The notes beneath the pieces were generated by a model. That model saw nothing but the letters and a program-made list of their open reading frames with translations. It did no database searches and was not told the origin of the DNA. This document shows, piece by piece, positions 11,560 through 59,724 of a stretch of DNA of 64,000 nucleotides. The position numbers and the translations under genes were made by a program. This DNA is from a virus: positions 13,827 to 77,826 of IMG/VR virus record IMGVR_UViG_3300043172_000590. One strand, given 5' to 3'. Positions within the stretch are counted from its first letter, which is position 1, and every line of letters begins with the position of its first letter.

Positions 11560-11943
11560 ATGAAGCAGGAATTTGAAATGACACAGGAGGAAATGGACGA
11601 TATTATCGCCATCAACAAAAGTCGAATGCCAGTAATGAAAATTGGTAACGTAACCACTGGAATGGACTTGCAGGAACGTATTAACGGATATTGGAAAGGC
11701 TTATCTGACAAATACGGATTCAAACAAATGACAGTTGAGGGTAGCAGTAGGGGAAAACTCTTCTTCTTGGCAGAACCAAAGCCAATTGTTAAGCCTAAGA
11801 CACGAGAAGAGATTGAAATGGATAAATACGACACTCTTCAAAAAATAGTTGACCAACTTGAAATGAGTGATTACGAGTGCGAAGGAGGATATTTAAAAAT
11901 GAATGTAGCATTTATGAAATTGAAGCAAATGGCTAAAGCCTAA
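11560..11943 (+). CDS. hypothetical protein
   Basis: 127-aa ORF, stop overlaps the next start. Confidence 0.65.
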   Translation: MKQEFEMTQEEMDDIIAINKSRMPVMKIGNVTTGMDLQERINGYWKGLSDKYGFKQMTVEGSSRGKLFFLAEPKPIVKPKTREEIEMDKYDTLQKIVDQLEMSDYECEGGYLKMNVAFMKLKQMAKA

Positions 11944-12176
11944 TGAAAAGCACAATAACAATAACACCCATGTCCAATATAGAGAATACGAGGACACTCA
12001 TAGACCACAAGGCGGTCACAACAGAAACTTGGGACAGCTTCATGGATGTGTTCGAGCTTAGAAATGTCCGTACCGATAAAAGACGAAGGACTAATCTAAT
12101 GGATATCTCGCTGTATGATGACGTAATTGTACGTGCAGGGATAGAGTATAAGGTTTTAGGAATGATGACTAAATAA
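11943..12176 (+). CDS. hypothetical protein
   Basis: TAATG translational coupling. Confidence 0.6.
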   Translation: MKSTITITPMSNIENTRTLIDHKAVTTETWDSFMDVFELRNVRTDKRRRTNLMDISLYDDVIVRAGIEYKVLGMMTK

Positions 12177-12194
12177 CTATTTAAAGTTTGCACT

Positions 12195-12404
12195 ATGAGA
12201 CCACAAGATTTAAAACTAGCACAATTAAAGGCCATCCCATTAGAGGAGTATGACGGCATTGGATATCACAATAAGACAAACTATGCGATCTGCGATGATG
12301 ATGTTATCCCAGAAATAGAGTGTGAGGATATCACATGTGATGAATGCTGTTTGAGTTGCTGTGTAGATATTGAGGCTAGGATTAAAGAATTAGAAACCAA
12401 GTAA
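12195..12404 (+). CDS. small Cys-rich hypothetical protein
   Basis: 69 aa, multiple Cys. Confidence 0.55.
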   Translation: MRPQDLKLAQLKAIPLEEYDGIGYHNKTNYAICDDDVIPEIECEDITCDECCLSCCVDIEARIKELETK

Positions 12405-12540
12405 TGATATGCCAAATAGACCTAAAAACCCCAAAGAAGCCGCAAAACATCGCCGCATTTTGATTATCTTCATCATCTATGTGGTAATATATACTTTGAC
12501 GGCGATAAGCTATTTAAACGCAAATTACAAGTTTTGATAT

Positions 12541-12816
12541 ATGACGTACAAAAAACTACCGGCAGATAAGGACCGGCGAAGAAAATTGACCGAACAGGCC
12601 CGTGAAGAGATTCAGCAAAGACATATCAATGGTGAGTCTATGAATTCATTGAGCAAACTGTTCAATGTATCGAGGGCTACAATTGGCAATGTACTGCATC
12701 CAGAGAGGACAAAGAACCGCAATCCGCAGGCAGGATACGGCAAGGAGGAGGCCTCAGAGAGCAGGAAAAAGACAATTGAGTATCGGAGGGAAGTATTTTA
12801 TAATGCTTCTAAATAG
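12541..12816 (+). CDS. helix-turn-helix DNA-binding protein
   Basis: KLT....EI......GESMNSLSKLFNVSRATIGNV. Confidence 0.75.
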   Translation: MTYKKLPADKDRRRKLTEQAREEIQQRHINGESMNSLSKLFNVSRATIGNVLHPERTKNRNPQAGYGKEEASESRKKTIEYRREVFYNASK

Positions 12817-12892
12817 TCATACATTTAGGAAAAGACACAATATATCAATATCTTGCAGTTCAATTAATGTTTAACTAAAACGCAGCAAAAAG

Positions 12893-13342
12893 ATGAGAAA
12901 TTTACTTTTTATTCTTTTGGTGTCCATAATCTCTTCGATGCTTTATAGCTCCCAAGCTGTAGCATTCTTTTGTCCGGACACCGAGCGCATTTACAATCAG
13001 GTTCATGCGCCACCGTCAGTAATCGTAGTTGAAGAAACTATAGTAGCTGATATTTTTATTGTAGAAGCAATCCCGGTTCTCGAAATCATATCCTTGAAGT
13101 CGTATAACGATGGTTACGGCATGGTGTTAAGGATAGATGCATTTATAGGTAGAAATGAAATCACTAAACGTAGTTGCAGCGAGTCCAATACAAGGTCAGT
13201 TGAAAATGACAAATTGAATGGCTACAGCGCAATGCCAGACGAAACCTTTGATATAAGTAAAGAAACCTTTACGAAATCAAGCCCGGATCTCTTGACTCTA
13301 TATGGGACAATAGGTTATACTATGGCCGTCACTGTGGTATAA
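12893..13342 (+). CDS. hypothetical exported/membrane protein
   Basis: MRNLLFILLVSII signal-like N-terminus; last gene before the convergent terminator. Confidence 0.5.
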   Translation: MRNLLFILLVSIISSMLYSSQAVAFFCPDTERIYNQVHAPPSVIVVEETIVADIFIVEAIPVLEIISLKSYNDGYGMVLRIDAFIGRNEITKRSCSESNTRSVENDKLNGYSAMPDETFDISKETFTKSSPDLLTLYGTIGYTMAVTVV

Positions 13343-19624: not shown

Positions 19625-21274
19625 CTATTTTACAACCCATGAGCCATTTTCATAAAAGTTAAATGCATTAATTGTTGTGTTGTATATTACCATTCCATTT
19701 ACTGCTGTTAAATTATCTCTTTGGCTTGTTGCCATTCTAGGAAGTAATAATGCCCCTGATGTTGATTTTATTTCAAGAGCTGCACTTGTTTCTGGGGTAC
19801 TCGTTCCAATAGCAAAATCTGAGTTAGGAACAGAAACTAATCCAATACTTGTTCCCCCTCTATTACTTGCTTTGATAATTGACTGAGTTGCTGTATATAA
19901 ATCACTTGCAGTTTTAAGCACAAACTCTTCATTAGATACTTCAATCATCCAAACTTTTTCACTACTTCCAGCATCTGACTCTTCCAGTATTATTCTTGGT
20001 GAATCTGATACAATATGTAATTCGTCATTAGCAAGATCTATTCCTATTCCTACATTACCAGTGAAATGGGGATTGTTTAATGGGGCTTTTGAATCTAAAG
20101 CTGATTGAGTGGCTAAACTTATTGGTTTATTGTCATCAGAAGTATTATCTACATTTGATACGCTTGAATTTAAAACGGCGATATCTACATCATCGACTGT
20201 TCCACTCAATGTAACGTCTCCAACTATATCTAAATTATCCTGAACTGTAAGAGTATTGCCGTCTGTATTTCTTATAATTGGTGTCTCAATATAGTCAGTT
20301 GCATCTATCGTAGTACCAGTAAAGCCAGCACCACTAATATCTCCTACATAAAGAACGCCCCTGATGTCAAAATCACTATTGACCATAAAACAGTTATCAC
20401 CAGACGACCATCCAAAGTAATCGGTTCCACTGTCGTTGAGATAAATCTTATCGGCTACTAGAGAACCATCACTATCAATAGAGGCAACATCTACACCATC
20501 GCTGTCTTTGATATACACCTTTTTAGAGCCAGCATTATCACCTAGTTTAAAGATTATATCCTTAGTGACAGAGTTAATTGTAAATGTTTGCTGCCCTTGT
20601 AGTGTCAAATCAGCACTTGCATGAATCATTCCGGTTTTACTCGAAGTAATATAAAATCGTATATAATCATTGCCTTCTGCAGCTCTTCTCCAAACTTTAA
20701 ATATCTTACCCGCTTCATCATTGCCAACATCAGTATCACTAAATACTTCAACATCATCATTTGCATAAGGTTGAATCTTTAAAATATCATCTGGGAAATA
20801 TAAGATAGGAGTTTGTATTCTGTACGGTACTTTGAAAGTTCCTACTTCCGACAATAATGCTCTTTCATCACCATCATCATACCCGCCAGTATAAAAAGAT
20901 ATATCCTGATTACTAGCGATTCTTAACTGGCCAGACTCAACCCCTATAGAGTATACATCGGAATACAAATTAATCTTTCGACCTGTAGTAGAAGGAAATT
21001 GAAGGAGACTTCCAGTTAAATCCGCCAAGTCTTTATCCCATAATGAAAATATTGGATCAGTTTCAGTATATGAAGTCAAAACAACTTCCCAGCTATCCCC
21101 ATCCCAGTATTCAAACTCACCCGTGGTAACATTATGAATGAGCCAATGTTTCCCGCTAGGATCTGAGAGGGCATCCCTTTGTGCCGTTGTTGCTTCTATA
21201 TGTTTAATAACCTGTTCTTGTCCGTATGTAAAACTTGAAATCAGAATTACAAGTAATAAAATTAATTTTTTCAT
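19625..21274 (-). CDS. tail fibre/adhesin protein with apparent signal peptide (start corrected to ATG 21274)
   Basis: MKKLILLLVILISSFTYG|Q; ETDPIF, NVDNTSD..KPIS.ATQ.ALD.KAP, GNVGIG, LLLPRM.T.QRD fibre motifs. Confidence 0.8.
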   Translation of the reverse strand: MKKLILLLVILISSFTYGQEQVIKHIEATTAQRDALSDPSGKHWLIHNVTTGEFEYWDGDSWEVVLTSYTETDPIFSLWDKDLADLTGSLLQFPSTTGRKINLYSDVYSIGVESGQLRIASNQDISFYTGGYDDGDERALLSEVGTFKVPYRIQTPILYFPDDILKIQPYANDDVEVFSDTDVGNDEAGKIFKVWRRAAEGNDYIRFYITSSKTGMIHASADLTLQGQQTFTINSVTKDIIFKLGDNAGSKKVYIKDSDGVDVASIDSDGSLVADKIYLNDSGTDYFGWSSGDNCFMVNSDFDIRGVLYVGDISGAGFTGTTIDATDYIETPIIRNTDGNTLTVQDNLDIVGDVTLSGTVDDVDIAVLNSSVSNVDNTSDDNKPISLATQSALDSKAPLNNPHFTGNVGIGIDLANDELHIVSDSPRIILEESDAGSSEKVWMIEVSNEEFVLKTASDLYTATQSIIKASNRGGTSIGLVSVPNSDFAIGTSTPETSAALEIKSTSGALLLPRMATSQRDNLTAVNGMVIYNTTINAFNFYENGSWVVK

Positions 21275-21278
21275 ACTA

Positions 21279-52447: not shown

Positions 52448-53194
52448 TTAAAAGGGGTTTTTATTAAAGTCAATAGATACTCCTCTATCTGCAACGGTAA
52501 CTGTTTTTCCGGTCAAGTCCTCTACTTCTTTTTTGAACCTTTCTTCATCCGAATTGTAATCTGATAAGTGGATCAGTACTACGTTGTTGACCCGTGACAA
52601 GTCATTTGCTGACAATAATTCTTTGCAGGTCTGGATACTCATATGTTCGTATGCCTTCTTGAGTACCTGTAATTCCATCTCGTCGCCCATCATCTTCTTT
52701 TCTACGATATCCTCACAGTAATTAGCCTCCACGAGGACTTGGTTTAGCCCATCAAACCTAAACTCTGAATACCTTGTGTCTGTAAGGAATAATACTACTC
52801 CACATTCTGGGTGGCGGATCAAGAAACCTAAAGGCTCTTTAGCTTCGTGTATGGTGTCGAACGGGATGATTTCAAATTCCCCTACCTTAAACTCGTTCCC
52901 ATCGCTAACCGGCCTTGGCGTGTTGTACGGATTTCCCTTTATTTCGATGCTGTCAATTGTTCCTTGGCTTGCGAATGCGGGTATTGACGTGTATAACATA
53001 TACTCGTTTATATATGCAGAATGATCAGAATGGCAATGGGACCAGATAAGCCCGACCACACTGGATAGATCAAACTCTAACACTTTCTTTACCTCCAATA
53101 ATTTAACCCCACATTCGATGATTAGCGTCTCTTTATTCCCCTTGAGAAGATAGCAATTCCCATGACTCCCAGATGCTAATACGTGTAGCTTCAT
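52448..53194 (-). CDS. metallo-beta-lactamase-fold hydrolase (YycJ-like nuclease)
   Basis: LASGSHGNCY, SHCHSDH, TDT, EANY, LIHLS. Confidence 0.9.
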   Translation of the reverse strand: MKLHVLASGSHGNCYLLKGNKETLIIECGVKLLEVKKVLEFDLSSVVGLIWSHCHSDHSAYINEYMLYTSIPAFASQGTIDSIEIKGNPYNTPRPVSDGNEFKVGEFEIIPFDTIHEAKEPLGFLIRHPECGVVLFLTDTRYSEFRFDGLNQVLVEANYCEDIVEKKMMGDEMELQVLKKAYEHMSIQTCKELLSANDLSRVNNVVLIHLSDYNSDEERFKKEVEDLTGKTVTVADRGVSIDFNKNPF

Positions 53195-53766
53195 TTCACA
53201 TCCTCTTTAAATTTCCAAATAAAGCCGCCTGCTTGTTTTCTGGTTAGCCCCGGCTTATACTCTTCCGTGGCGGCTACGGCATATAAATTCCTATGACACA
53301 CCCCCGTTTTTCGGTGAGCCTCCATCCCATTTATATGCTCTTTTATAAAATTACCATCTAAATCTAATTGCAAAATAGGTCTAGGTCTAATTTCGGTATT
53401 ATGCCTTATCATACCTGCGGTCATTCCGGGGTTTTCCTTCATAGTTATAACAGAATGGGCTTTTGCGCTTATGTATTCTAGATTACTTGCGTGATTATTC
53501 TGCCTGTTCCCATCTTTGTGGTGGACATGAAGTCCCGCAGGTCTTTCTCCAATAAACGCTTCTGCCACCAATACATGCATTCTTACGTATCGAATCAAAC
53601 TTGCCCTGCGAACCTCAAGCACGACGCTGAAATACCCACCCTTCTTGTTGGTGTTCGATAAAACGGTTCCTTTTGGGTTTTTCTTAAAACTTTTAAGCCT
53701 CCCGCAATTAGATACCTGATAATATCCCTCAAATCCAACAATGTCTCTCCAAATCTCAAGCTCCAT
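53191..53766 (-). CDS. NUMOD4-HNH homing endonuclease
   Basis: EIWRDI.GFEG.YQVSN.GR, HVLVAEAF, VHHKDGNRQNN..SNLE. Confidence 0.9.
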   Translation of the reverse strand: MELEIWRDIVGFEGYYQVSNCGRLKSFKKNPKGTVLSNTNKKGGYFSVVLEVRRASLIRYVRMHVLVAEAFIGERPAGLHVHHKDGNRQNNHASNLEYISAKAHSVITMKENPGMTAGMIRHNTEIRPRPILQLDLDGNFIKEHINGMEAHRKTGVCHRNLYAVAATEEYKPGLTRKQAGGFIWKFKEDVK

Positions 53767-53772
53767 AGTTCA

Positions 53773-53898
53773 CTATTGTTTTATTATCTTATTATTAGTG
53801 CTTTTACAGATTGGGCAAGCAGCAGCGTTAGCCTGAGATGCAATAGTAACAGGCTGATGCCATACAGTCCTGCATATATTGCATTCTCTTTTGTCCAT
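53773..53898 (-). CDS. 41-aa zinc-ribbon protein
   Basis: hand translation MDKRECNICRTVW...CPICKSTNNKIIKQ. Confidence 0.6.
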   Translation of the reverse strand: MDKRECNICRTVWHQPVTIASQANAAACPICKSTNNKIIKQ

Positions 53899-53904
53899 GA
53901 GAGG

Positions 53905-54234
53905 CTATATAATCTCGCTTAAAGCGCCTCTTGTGTTTGCGAGTGAGTCATTATATCCGGAAAGCAGGTCAATGCAATCATTTAGCTCTCCTATTACGCC
54001 GTCTCTCTTAGTTTTTTCTTTGTCATTTTCCGGGATAGGTACTTTGAAGTTTTTTAGCTGAGATACTTTGCCTGCTATGGCACCAGAGTTTTCGGCAGTC
54101 CTTTGTAACTCGTTTTTAAATCTGTCTAGAATAGCCCCAAATTCAGGAACCTTTTCTGTGATTTCGTTTGTATCCATTTTGTTCAGCGTTTTTACGTTCA
54201 GGTGCACATAGTCTACTGTTGTACATCTGGACAT
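53905..54234 (-). CDS. hypothetical coiled-coil protein
   Basis: 109-aa ORF; start uncertain. Confidence 0.55.
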   Translation of the reverse strand: MSRCTTVDYVHLNVKTLNKMDTNEITEKVPEFGAILDRFKNELQRTAENSGAIAGKVSQLKNFKVPIPENDKEKTKRDGVIGELNDCIDLLSGYNDSLANTRGALSEII

Positions 54235-54262: not shown

Positions 54263-55234
54263 CTATACAAAATCAGGCCCATCTTCTTTTTTTGTATCGG
54301 TACCTTTCTCGGCAATCTCACCTGTCTCCTTGTTGACGTTTTCAACCTTATCGACTGGTTTTTTATTTGCTACATCCGTCTTGACGAGCTCCTTCTTTTG
54401 TGCATTGGAAGCTCCGTCAGGTTTGTTTGTTACAATTTCTGCATCCTCTATGTTATCGAATCCGATAGCCACAATATTTCGCTTCTTGTCCTCATTGTTT
54501 TCTTCGGACAAATCATCAGCGTCGTTCCTCCCCTCTAGCAGATGGGCATCGTTAGAACTGTTGATAATGGATTTACACGCTCGGCTCTTGACAGTTTTAA
54601 TGCACATTTGGTCGGTAAATTTAGTATGCGCAGGGGAGTTCCCTTTTGCAGCTCCCATCATCCAAGCAGCCTTTATTTGAGCCATAGACATATCTTCAAT
54701 GTATAATGTCCCATCATCCATTTCCTTAACGGCATACGCTCCAAGAATCGCATTCTCTCTATTTTCAAATGGTTTTTCTTCCGGGGTTTCGTGCTTCACT
54801 AAAACCTTCCTACCCTTTTCTGTCCTCTTGGTTATATAAACATCTCCCTCTCTAACCACCTCTCCTTCTATTTCTTTCAGCCCAACTCTTTTTGCGACAG
54901 CAACATCTCCTTGATAGCTACGCATGAGAGTAAGTTCTGTTCCGAACACCACGAAGTAGCATTGTTTTTTAACGGGATTGAGTCCTTGCACCACCATGTC
55001 AAACAGAGAGTTGGCAATGCTTGCTTTAGAGCATATTTCGAGGGCTTTTTTCTTGTTCCGGTCCTCCACGTTCTGTAGTATCAGCCACGCAGATTTTAAT
55101 GCATTACCTGAACTGTAATTTTTCGGAAGGACAAGATCCTTAGAGTTCTCCATGTCTGCCACTCTTTTCGTTACGATATCAACTATGTTTGGCTGTGCTA
55201 CCGTAGTTTTGTTTTCGTTTGATTTTGTTGTCAT
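54263..55234 (-). CDS. recT: RecT-family single-strand annealing recombinase
   Basis: SIANSL.DMVVQGLNP.KKQCYF, RSYQG, DQM..KTV..RACK. Confidence 0.9.
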   Translation of the reverse strand: MTTKSNENKTTVAQPNIVDIVTKRVADMENSKDLVLPKNYSSGNALKSAWLILQNVEDRNKKKALEICSKASIANSLFDMVVQGLNPVKKQCYFVVFGTELTLMRSYQGDVAVAKRVGLKEIEGEVVREGDVYITKRTEKGRKVLVKHETPEEKPFENRENAILGAYAVKEMDDGTLYIEDMSMAQIKAAWMMGAAKGNSPAHTKFTDQMCIKTVKSRACKSIINSSNDAHLLEGRNDADDLSEENNEDKKRNIVAIGFDNIEDAEIVTNKPDGASNAQKKELVKTDVANKKPVDKVENVNKETGEIAEKGTDTKKEDGPDFV

Positions 55235-55249
55235 GCTATTTATTTAAAA

Positions 55250-55462
55250 TTATTTAGTTGTTCTCTCAATACTCCATATTCTCCCCGCTTTGATAAAAAT
55301 GTTTATTGTCCTGAGATTCCATCCCCATATGAATGCAGAAGGATAGACTTTGTGTCCGACAAACAAAGACGGCTCGTTCTCTAGTATATATACCACATCG
55401 TTCATTCTTTCCAGTTTGTTTTTTAGAACGAAATTCTTTGAACATTTATCTCCTTTTTTCAT
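55250..55462 (-). CDS. hypothetical protein
   Basis: 70-aa ORF. Confidence 0.55.
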   Translation of the reverse strand: MKKGDKCSKNFVLKNKLERMNDVVYILENEPSLFVGHKVYPSAFIWGWNLRTINIFIKAGRIWSIERTTK

Positions 55463-55465
55463 TTA

Positions 55466-55846
55466 TTAGAGATTTATGGGAATTACCACTTCTTCTATCT
55501 CAATCATCTTTCCAGCAAACTGCGCTCTATCAAAAGAAGTGGGATTGGTTATACCAATCTTATCCTTATAGCACATTGCAGCAGTAACTAATTTAAGCCA
55601 CGATCCGAGCCCGTTATAGTATCTGCCACTTTTCTTGTCTTTAACGATAAATCCCATTCCTTCATTATTTATCATACTAAAAGCCCTCCTCAGAAGACAT
55701 ATAGACTCCAAGTGCCCTACTTTGTGTTTATGGATGAAATTAATCACCTCTCCAAGTTGCCACTCGTCTTTTGTTAAGGCACACTGCCTGCCTGGGTAGC
55801 TGTTAATAATAGACTTAAATAAGTCTTGTATTTTATGCTCTTCCAT
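55466..55846 (-). CDS. hypothetical protein
   Basis: 126-aa ORF. Confidence 0.6.
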   Translation of the reverse strand: MEEHKIQDLFKSIINSYPGRQCALTKDEWQLGEVINFIHKHKVGHLESICLLRRAFSMINNEGMGFIVKDKKSGRYYNGLGSWLKLVTAAMCYKDKIGITNPTSFDRAQFAGKMIEIEEVVIPINL

Positions 55847-55931
55847 ATTCTAGTAATTATATAATGGGCATAAGCCTCTGTATCCGTGATATCCTACATC
55901 TATAATTTTCCGGACATCCTTCCCGGGTTCT

Positions 55932-56075
55932 TCAATGATATGCTATAACTATAAAACCCACAAATAGTACGTGCAATACGAGAACACTAGCTATAATAAT
56001 AATATATATGCCATTTTTATCTTCTGAGTTAGTCCTCCTTAAGGAGCGTTTCACTACTAATTTTATACATTCCAT
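55932..56075 (-). CDS. 47-aa single-TM membrane protein
   Basis: hand translation MECIKLVVKRSLRRTNSEDKNGIYIIIIASVLVLHVLFVGFIVIAYH. Confidence 0.5.
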   Translation of the reverse strand: MECIKLVVKRSLRRTNSEDKNGIYIIIIASVLVLHVLFVGFIVIAYH

Positions 56076-56095
56076 ATTTCAATTATTTTCATATT

Positions 56096-56503
56096 AAGAC
56101 CATTATCCCTGCAAGAGGGAAGGAAGGTCTGACATCCGATATAAAGACCTACAATGTGGGTTTAAGACTTGCCTGGTTCTGCTCCCTGCTGTCGCGATTC
56201 TTTTAGTTCAACAGCAACACGATTTGCCATACGGTTTTTACAGAAATGTTTGTTTTCATTCACTCCCTTGCAGGTCTTCCGTTACGGTCAGATACGGAAA
56301 CTTTGCATTAACAAACATACAAGTACCACTACCGACTTTGATTACCCTCGATATAATCAGGGATGGAGGTCTCGCTAAACTCCGTAAGGACAGCCGAAGT
56401 AAGCACAACCATTACGACCTGAGAAGTAAAGTTTCCCCAGCCATCCAAACGGAATTAATATTTTATTTGTGAGATTCATAATAAGTTGTGCTTATTCAAC
56501 TGC
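56096..56503 (-). ncRNA. structured ~410-nt leader with a 34-codon uORF (56479-56375)
   Basis: AATTCCGT..GGATGGCTGGGG/CTTCGGCTGTCC..ACGGAGTT stem with G-U pairs on -; further stems 56144-56278 and 56097-56130. Confidence 0.55.
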
Positions 56504-56505
56504 CA

Positions 56506-56535
56506 CAAATCTACACATAAAATCTTTAAATCAAA
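56506..56535 (-). promoter_or_regulatory. Bacteroidota promoter (-33/-7)
   Basis: TTTG-N18-TAGATTTG. Confidence 0.7.
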
Positions 56536-56558
56536 ATAATTAAGAACGATTTTAAATA

Positions 56559-56629
56559 GCAGAACGAGCGATTATCCCCTTCTCGTTATCTCTACCTCCG
56601 TTATCTGGGTGAGGCACTTTTTGTTCTGC
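56559..56629 (-). ncRNA. small structured RNA (array unit F)
   Basis: GCAGAAC/GTTCTGC closing stem; three GATAA repeats inside. Confidence 0.4.
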
Positions 56630-56712
56630 ATGTTACGAGTCTGCAACGCTTCGAGTGTCTGAGCATCCGCAAATTTCCCAATTACTATATTGCTCATTTT
56701 ATCCGGATAGCG

Positions 56713-56817
56713 TGGAGAAGCAAGGACTCGAACCTCGATGTAACCATCACACTAACGAGCAGTTTCCAGCATCAAAGCCTTCGGTGTCTCCTACTTACAT
56801 AATGTGCTACCTTCCCC
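56713..56817 (-). ncRNA. tRNA-like RNA (acceptor stem plus T-arm, atypical D/anticodon region)
   Basis: GGGGAAG/CTTCTCC-A acceptor with G3-U70; CGAGG-TTCGAGT-CCTTG T-arm; no encoded CCA. Confidence 0.7.
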
Positions 56818-56849
56818 TGATTCCCCGTCTTTCCGGGCTGTCAGTGTTT

Positions 56850-56964
56850 GTATAGATTTTAGCGTATGATTACCTCTATCAACGAAGGCCCCCTATCCAC
56901 TAATTAAGCAATGCCATCTATACCGTCAATCCCTAACACCTCAGAGATTCTGCTTGATAGGGTA
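56850..56964 (-). ncRNA. possible pseudoknotted RNA (array unit E)
   Basis: crossing stems 56850-57/56916-23 and 56871-82/56954-64. Confidence 0.35.
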
Positions 56965-56975
56965 TGATGTTTTCT

Positions 56976-57072
56976 AAAAACAGAGAGGGTCGATATTTAT
57001 ACATCCAGACCTCGACTGGGATAGTTGGTTTTAATGAGACCGCTCTAACTCGTTTTTTACCTCTCTGTTTTT
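56976..57072 (-). ncRNA. small structured RNA (array unit D)
   Basis: perfect 13-bp closing stem AAAAACAGAGAGG/CCTCTCTGTTTTT. Confidence 0.55.
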
Positions 57073-57120
57073 TCGCAAATAATGATCCAACACATTATAG
57101 ACGAACTATCAATATTTTCA

Positions 57121-57340
57121 AATCTGACCGTCTGCCGGGACGGGATACTGTAGGCGTGGATTCCTTGTGCTTTTGACATGGTTATTACACAGCTATTGCC
57201 TAGGCCCCACTGGTATCTCACCAATTGCCAATATCTCTCCACCAAACACGCCACTGGCAATGACTAGCAACTTTTTTTCATCGTTAATCAGATGGTGCCG
57301 CACAAAATGTACCGCCTGCTTGTTTGTTTTCGACCAGATT
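57121..57340 (-). ncRNA. ~220-nt structured RNA (array unit C)
   Basis: AATCTGGTCG/CGGTCAGATT closing stem (G-U pairs favour -); inner ATTGCCAGT/ATTGGCAAT. Confidence 0.45.
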
Positions 57341-57351
57341 ATACTTTAAAG

Positions 57352-57441
57352 AACAGGGAGCGGAGTTTGTGCATGCGCTAGCTTTCTCACGAATTGTTTA
57401 TCCACACTATCCAAGGGTCGCACCCTTTGCAACTCTCTGTT
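57352..57441 (-). ncRNA. small structured RNA (array unit B)
   Basis: AACAGAGAG/CTCCCTGTT ends; inner AAGGGT/ACCCTT hairpin. Confidence 0.45.
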
Positions 57442-57471
57442 TATATTTTCAATGAACGAATAATCAAATAT

Positions 57472-57609
57472 AAGATGCTTCTATTCTTATCGCCCCATTC
57501 TCTCTTTGTTGTTCCAAATACTGGCAGTGGGCAACTTTAGTCTATCATATCCTCCACAGGGAACAATCCCCAATCAAATTACTACGATAAGCGTCAAACA
57601 AAGCATCTT
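57472..57609 (-). ncRNA. rod-like ~140-nt RNA (array unit A)
   Basis: nested stems AAGATGCTT/AAGCATCTT, CTTATCG/CGATAAG and TTGTTCC/GGAACAA. Confidence 0.55.
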
Positions 57610-57642
57610 TTTCTCGCATACTACAGGTTTGTCTTCAAAAAT

Positions 57643-59724
57643 CTATTTAATCAATAATTTATAATAAGGTTTTCCTTCTGCATGAATGCTATTTCCCTTC
57701 TCGTCAGTATCAACAATACATGCTGGACACTTAGGATTGTTAATAAGTATCTCCCCGCATTCAGGGCACTTGTAGAGTTTCGCCACTCTTAGGTTTATTA
57801 TCTGGGATCTCGTCTCAATAATCTCATTTGTTGACTCCCTATTGTCGATGAATATGGGAGCGCTAGCATCATCGAACTTGCATATCTCATTAATAACTTC
57901 CATACCGGCATTAACCCTCTTTGCATCGTTGGCATCCTGGTATGGTACGCCATCAAGTAGTCCGATACAGCATTGTTCAAAACCACCATTCCCAAGCTCT
58001 TTGAACATTTTAAATTTGATGCCGGAAAATCTTTCATTGACCCGATTTTCGAGTTCGGTATATTTTTCTGTCTCAAATCTCTCAACAACCATCAGCTCTT
58101 TTTCCTTCGATGCAAGATTACTCTCTATTCCCTTCTTCTCATTTGTCAGCTCCAATACCCGGTCATTATCCTTTTGGATATCGTCACGAACCCTAAGATC
58201 TTTATTGATTGCTCCGATTTTAGTCTGTAGTTCAGATTCCTTGGATGTCAGTTCGGTGTCAGTTTCAGGCTTGTTGTTCTCGTCGAAATGCTCAATCTCA
58301 TTTTTCAATACACTCAGTAACTTATTTAGCCCAATAAGAGTGACATCGCCAGAAAGTGCCTCTTCCAAATTCTCTTCCTTGATAGGATTAGCGACAAGCT
58401 CCTTTAATTCCCCTTCGGAAACATGTACTGCAGCTTTTGCGGCTTCTCTCTTATCTTCCAGTTCTGTTATCGCGGACTTAGCATCATCTATTTTCTTAAC
58501 AATCGCTTTACCTTCCGTATTGATGAGGGCCTTTCCATCAATAACAAACTGGCTGAAATCTACTTTCATAGACTCCTTTTTCTCCTCTATATCCCCTTCT
58601 GGCAACGATTGCTTGCAGGCAGGGCAGGTAAATTCACTATCATTAAACTTGAGGCTCTTTTTATTTATTTCTGCCCAGTCTTCTAAGAGAGTTTTTTTAT
58701 TGGCGGTAAGCGTTTCTACCTTTCTTTCGCAGAGACCTATATCCATTGTTAGTCCAGGAATCTTATTGCCAGACATTTTGATTTGTCCCTCTGCTAATTC
58801 AATCTTTTTCTTATGCGCCTTATATGCAATATTTAGCCCTTTCCCAATATCCGCCTTTCTGGATTCAATATCTAACTCTATCGGGCCTTTTTTTCTTACA
58901 AGCGCAAGTTTCTTATTTGCAATGCCTTCCTCAGCTTTCGAAGCATCGAGTATTTTTCCGCTAACAGTCCCTTTCTCTTGAGTCAATACAAGCAGATATC
59001 CTTCTAATTTATTCCAATCAAGAACCTCCGGTATTTTACTCAACCTTTCTTTTATCGCAGAACCCTTGTCTTTCAACTCGTCCTTAAGCTTAGCAATAGA
59101 GGCTTTCACGCTTTTTTTATAGAGATCCATGCTTTTACCGTTCAGGATATCAAGCATCTTGATAAACTCCTCGTTGTTTTCTGCAATATCAGCATCAGTG
59201 CGTTCTCCGCCAGACATCTTAGCGAGCATTGCCCGTCTCTTAGCCCAAGGGACCTGCTTGTTGTCAAAAAAGTATAATGGGTTTGTAATCAACTTAAATA
59301 CTTCTTCGCTTATGATTGCTGAGACATACGCATTGTATTCGCCGATATTAACCGGGACGCCATCGTACCAACACAGAGTTTCGTTGCCTTTGAATACCTC
59401 CTCTTCTTTCCCTTTGGGCTTTACCCATTTTTCTTGGAGTGCCCTCTTAAGAATAGTTTCTCTTCCATCCAAGAGTAAGACACCTTCGACAGAATGGACC
59501 ACTCTTGACATTGGAATATTATTCTCGTCCAATGTCTTTATTGAGAAGTCGTGATTTCCAGCTGCATCCTTACCGAATAGGAGCCAAGTGAACCCATTGA
59601 GCTGAGTGCTCTTGAATGTTCCGTTGTCTCCCCATATATCCGTAATATCTTTATTGTAATTTACTTCGAGGTTTATCGCCCCCATGAAGTATGAAAATTT
59701 TAAGCTCTTAACTATTGCTTCCAT
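57643..59724 (-). CDS. SbcC/Rad50-like coiled-coil ATPase
   Basis: GDNGTFKST Walker A, long coiled coil with CPAC hook, PIFIDNRES Walker B, extra C-terminal Zn ribbon. Confidence 0.9.
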   Translation of the reverse strand: MEAIVKSLKFSYFMGAINLEVNYNKDITDIWGDNGTFKSTQLNGFTWLLFGKDAAGNHDFSIKTLDENNIPMSRVVHSVEGVLLLDGRETILKRALQEKWVKPKGKEEEVFKGNETLCWYDGVPVNIGEYNAYVSAIISEEVFKLITNPLYFFDNKQVPWAKRRAMLAKMSGGERTDADIAENNEEFIKMLDILNGKSMDLYKKSVKASIAKLKDELKDKGSAIKERLSKIPEVLDWNKLEGYLLVLTQEKGTVSGKILDASKAEEGIANKKLALVRKKGPIELDIESRKADIGKGLNIAYKAHKKKIELAEGQIKMSGNKIPGLTMDIGLCERKVETLTANKKTLLEDWAEINKKSLKFNDSEFTCPACKQSLPEGDIEEKKESMKVDFSQFVIDGKALINTEGKAIVKKIDDAKSAITELEDKREAAKAAVHVSEGELKELVANPIKEENLEEALSGDVTLIGLNKLLSVLKNEIEHFDENNKPETDTELTSKESELQTKIGAINKDLRVRDDIQKDNDRVLELTNEKKGIESNLASKEKELMVVERFETEKYTELENRVNERFSGIKFKMFKELGNGGFEQCCIGLLDGVPYQDANDAKRVNAGMEVINEICKFDDASAPIFIDNRESTNEIIETRSQIINLRVAKLYKCPECGEILINNPKCPACIVDTDEKGNSIHAEGKPYYKLLIK

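Follow-up and report, generated by a model that had tools for sequence, protein, structure and literature searches.

The tRNA region of phage T4 is reportedly a cluster of transfer RNA (tRNA) genes together with the small stable RNAs C and D, and the phage RNAs GOLLD and ROOL, which are large and ornate, are associated with tRNAs. In alanine minihelices and in the tRNA-like domain of transfer-messenger RNA (tmRNA), charging by alanyl-tRNA synthetase (AlaRS) depends on a G3.U70 pair, and the mycobacteriophage element MPME is an ultra-small phage mobile element. Here, we analyse a zone of about 1.8 kb free of open reading frames (ORFs) in a window of 64 kb, the whole stretch of DNA under study (bases 13827-77826 of the 77,826-bp IMG/VR virus record; coordinates are window positions unless marked otherwise). 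A preliminary description, made from the sequence alone, had divided part of this zone into at least seven small units, here called A to G, and had proposed that they are separately folded RNAs. Our own reading, to which we give a probability of roughly 40%, is that the zone consists of small non-coding modules that are constrained or mobile, and that some of them are RNA elements on either strand.

Like a phage tRNA cluster, the zone is an ORF-free block in a gene-dense phage, with short units, AT-rich linkers, a tRNA-shaped element and a content that varies among relatives; unlike such a cluster, it contains no canonical tRNA, let alone several in tandem, its one tRNA-like unit lacks D and anticodon arms, and its units seemingly lie on both strands. 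With GOLLD and ROOL it shares hundreds of ORF-free nucleotides (nt) in a phage beside a tRNA-like element, but it has no Rfam match at E 10 and no excess of folding on the sense strand, and its relatives exchange pieces, which is a misfit with one large conserved fold.

The absence of a credible ORF over about 1.05 kb was borne out, and the gap is wider than the 56558-57609 earlier reported, extending over 55847-57642 and making it the longest in the 77.8-kb genome. Within these limits, all six frames are interrupted by all three stop codons, and a coding score from a three-periodic Markov model, trained on 49 long ORFs of the same genome, lies between -1 and -25 bits per 150 nt for each frame over about 55810-57600, compared with clearly positive values over the flanking ATPase and RecT genes. 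For the 40 stop-to-stop fragments of at least 30 codons, the best Pfam or PHROG match has E = 0.014, and tblastn detects similarity neither within the genome nor in relatives. Because of the stops, the negative coding score and the missing protein matches, recent gene decay, a recoded gene or an alternative genetic code is unlikely; the region is non-coding and does not appear to be the decayed coding sequence that the preliminary description had itself named as a possible refutation. A search with RecT identified 11 relatives in IMG/VR (36-53% identity), and in these RecT comes 0-175 nt after the ATPase gene and is itself followed by a metallo-beta-lactamase-fold (MBL-fold) gene. Since the zone is absent from all of them, with the ATPase abutting RecT, it is, on this comparison, a lineage-specific insertion; the same junction holds five small ORFs in one relative, L010.

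Sequence related to the insertion is scarce. When the complete zone was compared by BLAST with 401 Bacteroidota genomes, the only matches were of 20-45 nt and at chance level, including a 23/25 match of 56377-56401 to the rpsL (S12) leader of several Bacteroidota, which is probably chance, as about 13 such matches are expected in 401 genomes. The stretch had no blastn match among 50,697 phage records; scans of IMG/VR with the ATPase protein, with three exact DNA strings taken from units F, G and A, and with an alignment of a 41-amino-acid (aa) ORF gave no match, and two scans of Joint Genome Institute (JGI) metagenomes with the ATPase protein and a 22-mer from unit G gave no match. DNA of this phage was found only in marine-sediment and cold-seep metagenomes, in three runs: X1, probably the source sample, and, from two other studies, X2 (marine sediment) and X3 (cold seep).

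Comparison with the contigs from X2 and X3 shows that what is conserved is the modules and not the entire stretch: related phages of other sediments retain some modules with hardly a change and replace, delete or re-order others, with the breaks mostly in the linkers. Several non-coding modules are 95.5-97% identical, compared with 87-94% for the flanking genes (Table 1), and the pooled differences amount to 24/778 (3.1%) in non-coding patches versus 92/1034 (8.9%) in the coding flanks (Fisher p = 3e-7). As 12 of the 15 listed RecT differences fall at third codon positions, at least 12 of 82 such positions differ (at least 15%), versus 7 of 239 positions in units G and A (p = 4e-4); neutral divergence is therefore estimated from these sites at 15% or more, about five times that of G and A. 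Similarity ends or jumps at 56552, 56629/56709, 56791, 57112, 57148/57235, 57447 and 57457, and of these eight break points five lie in linkers, although linkers account for 20% of the sequence (p = 0.011), in agreement with the modular layout described earlier. The breaks at 56552, 56629/56709, 57112, 57447 and 57457 all fall within a linker or at its edge. In X3, units G and F are kept and the 79-nt linker between them is replaced by 43 other nucleotides. In X2, the ends of unit C are kept (57112-57148 and 57235-57359) and its interior is deleted or diverged, with a joint of 57148 to 57235. A 7.4-kb X2 contig with flanks that differ from those of this phage carries both ends of C and then the interior of D between B-type arms, AACAGGGAG...CTCTCTGTT; the block in common spans from one copy of the 10-nt direct repeat ATATTTTCAA to the other, 57112 to 57452. 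Unit G is the module common to all three lineages. Such sharp transitions from near-identical to unalignable sequence at short common sequences, namely ATATTTTCAA and, in B and D, the AACAGAGAG arms, resemble the module boundaries of mosaic phages, except that the modules exchanged here are 70-350 nt of non-coding DNA and not genes.

The tRNA-like unit F proved real. Its acceptor stem is a perfect 7-bp helix, GGGGAAG/CUUCUCC, with a G3.U70 pair and an unpaired discriminator A73 next to it, and a T arm, CGAGG-UUCGAGU-CCUUG (5-bp stem and 7-nt loop of the UUCGANU type), lies directly 5' of the 3' acceptor strand. The Rfam tRNA model RF00005 matches F over its full length, all 71 model positions, with 17.1 bits, which does not reach the gathering cut-off of 29 bits; the E value of 6.4, obtained over 7 kb and 4227 families, corresponds to about 0.0015 for the single tRNA model. 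A D arm and an anticodon arm with a 7-nt loop are not present in F: cmscan can align it only by inserting 48 nt, with 4 nt instead of 15 in the anticodon arm, and the minimum-free-energy structure has one long irregular hairpin where the two arms would be. The preliminary description had recognised no canonical tRNA, and this holds, given the sub-threshold Rfam score and no call by ARAGORN. Among the 29 tRNAs of a Bacteroidales metagenome-assembled genome (MAG), used as a stand-in host, the ends of F best match tRNA-Ala(UGC), at 29 of 39 positions (the next best reaches 27), with a double change from U-A to G-C at pair 7-66. Kinship to tRNA-Ala appears the closest by this small margin and agrees with the alanine identity set (G3.U70, A73).

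As in tmRNA and the alanine minihelix, F combines a 7-bp acceptor stem starting with GGGG, G3.U70, A73 and a canonical T arm with the absence of an anticodon and a helix stacked below. It differs from tmRNA in its length of 105 nt, with about 60 nt between the acceptor strands, and in having no pseudoknots, credible tag frame or unpaired D-loop analogue; F gave no Rfam tmRNA match at E 10, and the ARAGORN tmRNA search gave none at default settings. We also considered F as a phage attachment site (attP) copied from the end of a host tRNA, and rejected it because neither 185,579 species genomes nor IMG/VR contain an exact copy of the 21-nt T-arm and acceptor end and the phage has no integrase.

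Units B and D begin alike, as had been noticed, through their common AACAGAGAG arms, and their inner lengths are nearly equal, 72 and 73 nt. The earlier remark that B fits the plus strand better also stands: its 9-bp closing helix has one G.U pair on that strand, versus an A.C mismatch on the minus strand, and the D-type copy in X2 has an arm mismatch of the same kind, G.U on plus and A.C on minus. The 13-bp repeat of D is the longest perfect repeat of the genome and arises in 1% of shuffles (p = 0.01). D and B form a family with a conserved closing helix, AACAGRGAG/CUCUCUGUU, for which the G.U pattern and the folding energy favour the plus strand. Descent of B from an inverted copy of D was dismissed, with an interior alignment z of 0.9, which is not significant, and no internal paralogy besides the common arms was found within the genome. 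No further D or B copies were found in the 77.8-kb genome or in IMG/VR; the gapped arm pattern has one match in IMG/VR, an unrelated inverted repeat of a giant virus, and 10 matches in the 185,579 species genomes versus about 14 expected by a hand estimate, with a D-like interior in none of them. The flanks of B and D are not direct repeats, that is, no target-site duplications were found. The two units are like miniature inverted-repeat transposable elements (MITEs) and MPME in their terminal inverted repeats of 9-13 bp (13 and perfect in D; 9 with one wobble in B), their similar length and their variation in presence and absence, and unlike them in having no target-site duplication, extra copies or transposase, and in their mutually unrelated interiors. 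A family of elements of about 100 nt in Clostridia MAGs (L014:6324-6426, L018:1111-1210 and L019:3606-3708) also has long inverted arms, which by coincidence share their first 10 nt with D, and interiors unrelated to it.

Terminal helices are present where they had been placed in A (9 bp), B (9 bp), C (about 10 bp), D (13 bp, perfect) and G (7 bp), whereas E consists of two hairpins. The per-unit folding scores in Table 1 are biased by the choice of units and are notable for D and A alone, and A, C, E and G are without statistical support as folded RNAs. The visible substitutions in G and A, which are few, are compatible with minus-strand helices: in A, the X2 changes at 57495 and 57498 together permit a shifted but more stable helix (-39.5 vs -37.5 kcal/mol), and in G the change at 56594 turns a G.U pair into G-C in a hairpin. 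The zone has a single full Bacteroidota-type promoter, and unit G is situated 24-94 nt upstream of its -33 element; because G adjoins the upstream side of that promoter, a role at the DNA level is possible, and it may otherwise be part of a 41-codon ORF or of the region upstream of the next promoter.

Table 1. Features of the ORF-free zone and its flanks, with differences counted in aligned pieces of the X2 and X3 contigs; z, folding score relative to shuffled sequence on the strand in brackets.
Feature	Position	Strand	Properties	Differences
Entire ORF-free non-coding zone	55847-57642		between ATPase and 126-aa ORF/RecT	
Unit A	57472-57609	-	138 nt; 9-10-bp closing helix and nested stems; z -2.3 (+), -2.5 (-)	95.5-97% identical in X2
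Direct repeat ATATTTTCAA, copy 2	57443-57452		10 nt; A-B linker	X2 similarity breaks at 57447, 57457
Unit B	57352-57441	+	arms AACAGGGAG/CTCTCTGTT as in D; interior unrelated to D	
Unit C	57121-57340	-	220 nt; helix of about 10 bp with G.U on - strand; z about 0 (+), about 0 (-)	
Direct repeat ATATTTTCAA, copy 1	57112-57121		10 nt; edge of C	X2 similarity begins at 57112
Unit D	56976-57072	+	13-bp perfect inverted repeat enclosing 71 nt; z -3.5 (+), -2.0 (-)	
Unit E	56850-56964		two ordinary hairpins, no helix closing the whole unit; z -1.1 (+), 0.0 (-)	not seen in X2, X3
Unit F	56713-56817	-	105 nt; tRNA-Ala-like acceptor/T-arm minihelix and long irregular hairpin	
41-codon ATG ORF	56572-56697	-	over F-G linker and most of G; starts 16 nt after F	
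Unit G	56559-56629	-	71 nt; 7-bp closing helix	about 97% identical in X2 and X3
Promoter of 126-aa ORF/RecT operon	56506-56535	-	Bacteroidota type, TTTG-N18-TAGATTTG	
SbcC-like AAA_23 ATPase	57643-59724	-	upstream flank; Pfam AAA_23, 24.8 bits (gathering cut-off 27); PHROG 77 SbcC-like, E 8e-39	coding: X2 13/205; X3 32/254
126-aa ORF			coding	X2 24/330
RecT	54263-55234	-	downstream flank; Pfam RecT, E 1.9e-32	coding: X2 23/245
Non-coding patch	56552-56691			X2 4/140
Non-coding patch	57447-57545			X2 3/99
Non-coding patch	57517-57648			X2 5-6/132
Non-coding patch	55945-56048			X3 3/104
Non-coding patch	56143-56360			X3 6/217
Non-coding patch	56544-56629			X3 3/86

As a plausible arrangement, modules of about 70-220 nt with AT-rich linkers between them would make up the insertion in an early recombination operon, and at least some of them may be small RNA elements, transcribed by read-through of the ATPase operon or in antisense. 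Of these modules, F and D/B are the only two that can be read with any confidence. On the minus strand, F would be a tRNA-Ala-derived minihelix that mimics a tRNA, either to mark a processing site or to act as a decoy or an acceptor, since it retains the features expected for recognition by RNase P, the CCA-adding enzyme and AlaRS (G3.U70, A73) without D and anticodon arms. A bolder version of the same idea is, in our judgement, unlikely, namely that the zone is a phage locus of a new kind, an exchangeable set of small non-coding RNA (ncRNA) cassettes on either strand, constrained at nearly every nucleotide and swapped at conserved linkers among Bacteroidota phages of marine sediments, one of them an alanine-accepting tRNA mimic without an anticodon, and that they act, for example, as decoys against host defences that target RNA or tRNA.

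Several results weigh against reading the zone as constrained or mobile modules with RNA elements among them. Closing helices of at least 8 or at least 9 effective pairs (spans of 50-240 nt) number 11 and 5 per strand in the 1052 nt of 56558-57609, and dinucleotide shuffles give 8.4-10.2 +- 2.7 and 2.6-2.8 +- 1.6, so that the observed numbers are those of chance; the best tiling of the same 1052 nt has 4-5 units versus 4.1-4.2 in shuffles. The helices described earlier are thus not beyond chance in number, length or tiling, the 13-bp repeat of D alone being rare, and terminal helices drawn by hand in about 1 kb of AT-rich DNA are insufficient alone as evidence for folded RNAs. Sliding 120-nt windows have a mean z of -0.15 on both strands in 56558-57609, compared with -0.17/-0.18 in the flanking genes. 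When 56615-57614 is folded as one piece of 1000 nt, the minus (sense) strand has a z of +0.10, 11 of 20 shuffles matching or exceeding its stability, and the plus (antisense) strand a z of -2.14. No family reaches its Rfam gathering score in the window, and at E <=10 the sole match in 55000-58500 is the tRNA model on F; ARAGORN at default settings returns 0 tRNA and 0 tmRNA in the 64-kb window, and its calls at thresholds of 70-80% were dropped as mutually inconsistent. Neither a Bacteroidota-type promoter nor a terminator framing the array was found. The conservation argument has its own weak points: the comparison includes only pieces at least 80% alike, which biases the aligned patches towards similarity, the contigs of X2 and X3 have little length and low depth, and high identity in patches could come from recent recombination instead of constraint. 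Finally, X3 has a diverged copy of F, with differences at 9 of 83 positions and at 7 of 23 at the 5' end, four of the latter being U to C, so that F is much less conserved there than the other modules; to keep their pairs, five of these 5' changes would require partner changes at positions 56719, 56741, 56747, 56753 and 56758, which lie within the piece that has the nine differences, and this is at most suggestive.

The same observations can be read in other ways. If the modules were selfish or passively mobile DNA, that is, non-autonomous elements or recombination cassettes, their identity would reflect recent transfer and not function, and this would account for patches of about 97% identity that adjoin unalignable sequence, for the D and B terminal inverted repeats of 9-13 bp with the same sequence, equal inner length and unrelated interiors, for the D-type interior at the position of B in an X2 contig with other flanks, and for a C-B block bounded by a 10-nt direct repeat; a free-standing HNH endonuclease gene has, moreover, inserted into the same operon. 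We hold it to be rather doubtful, as B and D have no target-site duplications, neither the genome nor IMG/VR contains more copies and the 185,579 species genomes contain none that has a related interior, the phage encodes no transposase, integrase, resolvase or reverse transcriptase, and the inverted repeats of the other units are at chance level. DNA-level cis elements, such as sites for regulators of the promoter downstream, an origin of replication or a recombination hot spot beside the recombination genes, would explain why a module just upstream of the -33 element is common to three lineages and why sequence is conserved without a thermodynamic signal, as in protein-binding DNA, and the perfect palindromic pair of D stands near genes that work on DNA ends. 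This is nevertheless quite unlikely: the zone contains no iterons or repeated operator motifs, and the cumulative GC skew has no turn there; 1.8 kb far exceeds the needs of a promoter region, nothing at the DNA level gives a rationale for the tRNA-like anatomy of F, and beyond G the X2 sequence is different and a gene start follows.

The original proposal, in which a single polycistronic transcript of the minus strand is processed into at least seven small RNAs that fold separately and act as decoys or antitoxin mimics, agrees with the layout of units and AT-rich linkers, with the relatives' break points in those linkers, with a tRNA-like F that could act as a processing signal and with the G.U pairs of the C helix on the minus strand. 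The minus-strand fold, at a z of +0.10, is no better than shuffled sequence, which the preliminary description had named as grounds for refutation (the windows average -0.15), and the assignment to the minus strand is therefore unsupported; the B/D family favours the plus strand. Because B and D fit the plus strand while F lies on the minus strand, the zone does not look like a single co-directional cassette, and no promoter or terminator frames one; with the helix count at chance, E without a closing helix, and neither an Rfam match nor a ToxI-type repeated unit, this proposal is now decidedly unlikely. Neutral leftovers, either decayed small genes or junk at a permissive junction, were already disfavoured and seem very unlikely: insertions are tolerated at this junction, as in L010 with its five small ORFs, and the zone has neither a fold signal nor a family match, but there is zero residual coding signal in any frame and no protein similarity, and the patches differ by about 3% versus at least 15% at synonymous-type RecT sites. 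It is more improbable still that part of the zone encodes unannotated micro-proteins such as the 41-codon ORF. For this ORF, a 41-aa protein with 95% identity (I4T, V35A) was called on an independent 2115-nt JGI contig, two of the three visible X2 changes fall at third positions, the difference in length in X3, 36 nt, preserves the frame, and the ATG follows F closely. Against it, the coding score is ambiguous and inside the range of spurious ORFs, no other ATG ORF of at least 30 codons exists on the sense strand within 56558-57609, its third positions are far more conserved than those of RecT, too much so for coding alone, and it accounts for at most 126 of 1052 nt.

The surrounding genome gives these elements their context. 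The 77.8-kb record is rated complete and has direct terminal repeats; it is gene-dense, and the ORF-free stretch sits within a long minus-strand arm, inside the recombination operon, in which a 126-aa ORF, a 70-aa ORF and then RecT follow downstream. A Shine-Dalgarno motif precedes 13 of 88 long ORFs, versus a background of 7%, and the regions upstream of ORFs are A-rich, indicating a genome without Shine-Dalgarno use; promoters of the form TTTG-N18-TAnnTTTG are present, including the minus-strand one at 56535-56506. On these two grounds, the host is probably a member of the Bacteroidota. Profile searches at E 1e-5 found 11 Pfam families in total among 81 ORFs of at least 75 aa, none of them related to tRNA; a further 13 ORFs, large structural proteins among them, were scanned separately or lie outside this count. 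The closest relatives of the ATPase are just 33-36% identical, and with so few Pfam families the phage lineage is, as judged from its proteins, very isolated. Profile searches for RVT_1, Phage_integrase, Resolvase and transposase families found none in the phage genome, nor are TROVE (Rsr) or RtcB genes present.

Other candidate explanations for parts of the zone were tried and set aside. An invertible promoter, a retron, an integron attC site and attP were rejected, as the genome has no recombinase or reverse transcriptase; a CRISPR-like or ToxI-type array was rejected, as the short direct repeats have only two copies and there is no constant tandem unit; and a Y RNA of the YrlA type was rejected, with neither a TROVE (Rsr) or RtcB gene nor an Rfam match. 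A sigma-70-like promoter, TTGAAA-16-TATAAT, at 57121-57094 is probably irrelevant in a genome that has no Shine-Dalgarno motifs and uses Bacteroidota-type promoters.

Outside 56558-57609, the leader downstream of the promoter at 56535 contains a hairpin at 56400-56494 with perfect 10-bp arms, TAAGCACAAC/GTTGTGCTTA, and a 120-nt window z of -5.1 on the plus strand. Further downstream, a 47-aa ORF with a hydrophobic, membrane-like segment (55932-56075, minus strand) has been called as a gene in data of JGI and Logan; an X3 contig matches its DNA with 97% identity. A 467-nt X1 contig of other depth matches 56331-56385 (55 nt) at 87%, with unlike sequence to either side, and could come from a different genome that has a short element in common with this one. 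The free-standing HNH endonuclease gene (NUMOD4 and HNH_3 domains) and a 109-aa ORF separate RecT from the MBL-fold gene (53191-54234, minus strand), and the adjacency of the RecT and MBL-fold genes in 9 of 11 relatives marks this pair as a second insertion into the same operon. Two more ORF-poor zones occur, at 11598-13263 of the genome (before the window; 1.7 kb) and at 19887-21278 of the window (1.4 kb, without an Rfam match); the three together make up about 6% of the genome.

A stretch of 1.8 kb without genes is rare in phage genomes. In this one, samples of three separate studies show non-coding pieces better preserved than the proteins encoded next to them, and therefore something besides protein coding has been selected or has spread. 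As mobile DNA, the modules would be elements of unusually small size; if they are RNAs, they would add to phage biology an anticodon-less mimic of tRNA-Ala and a cassette-like exchange of ncRNAs.

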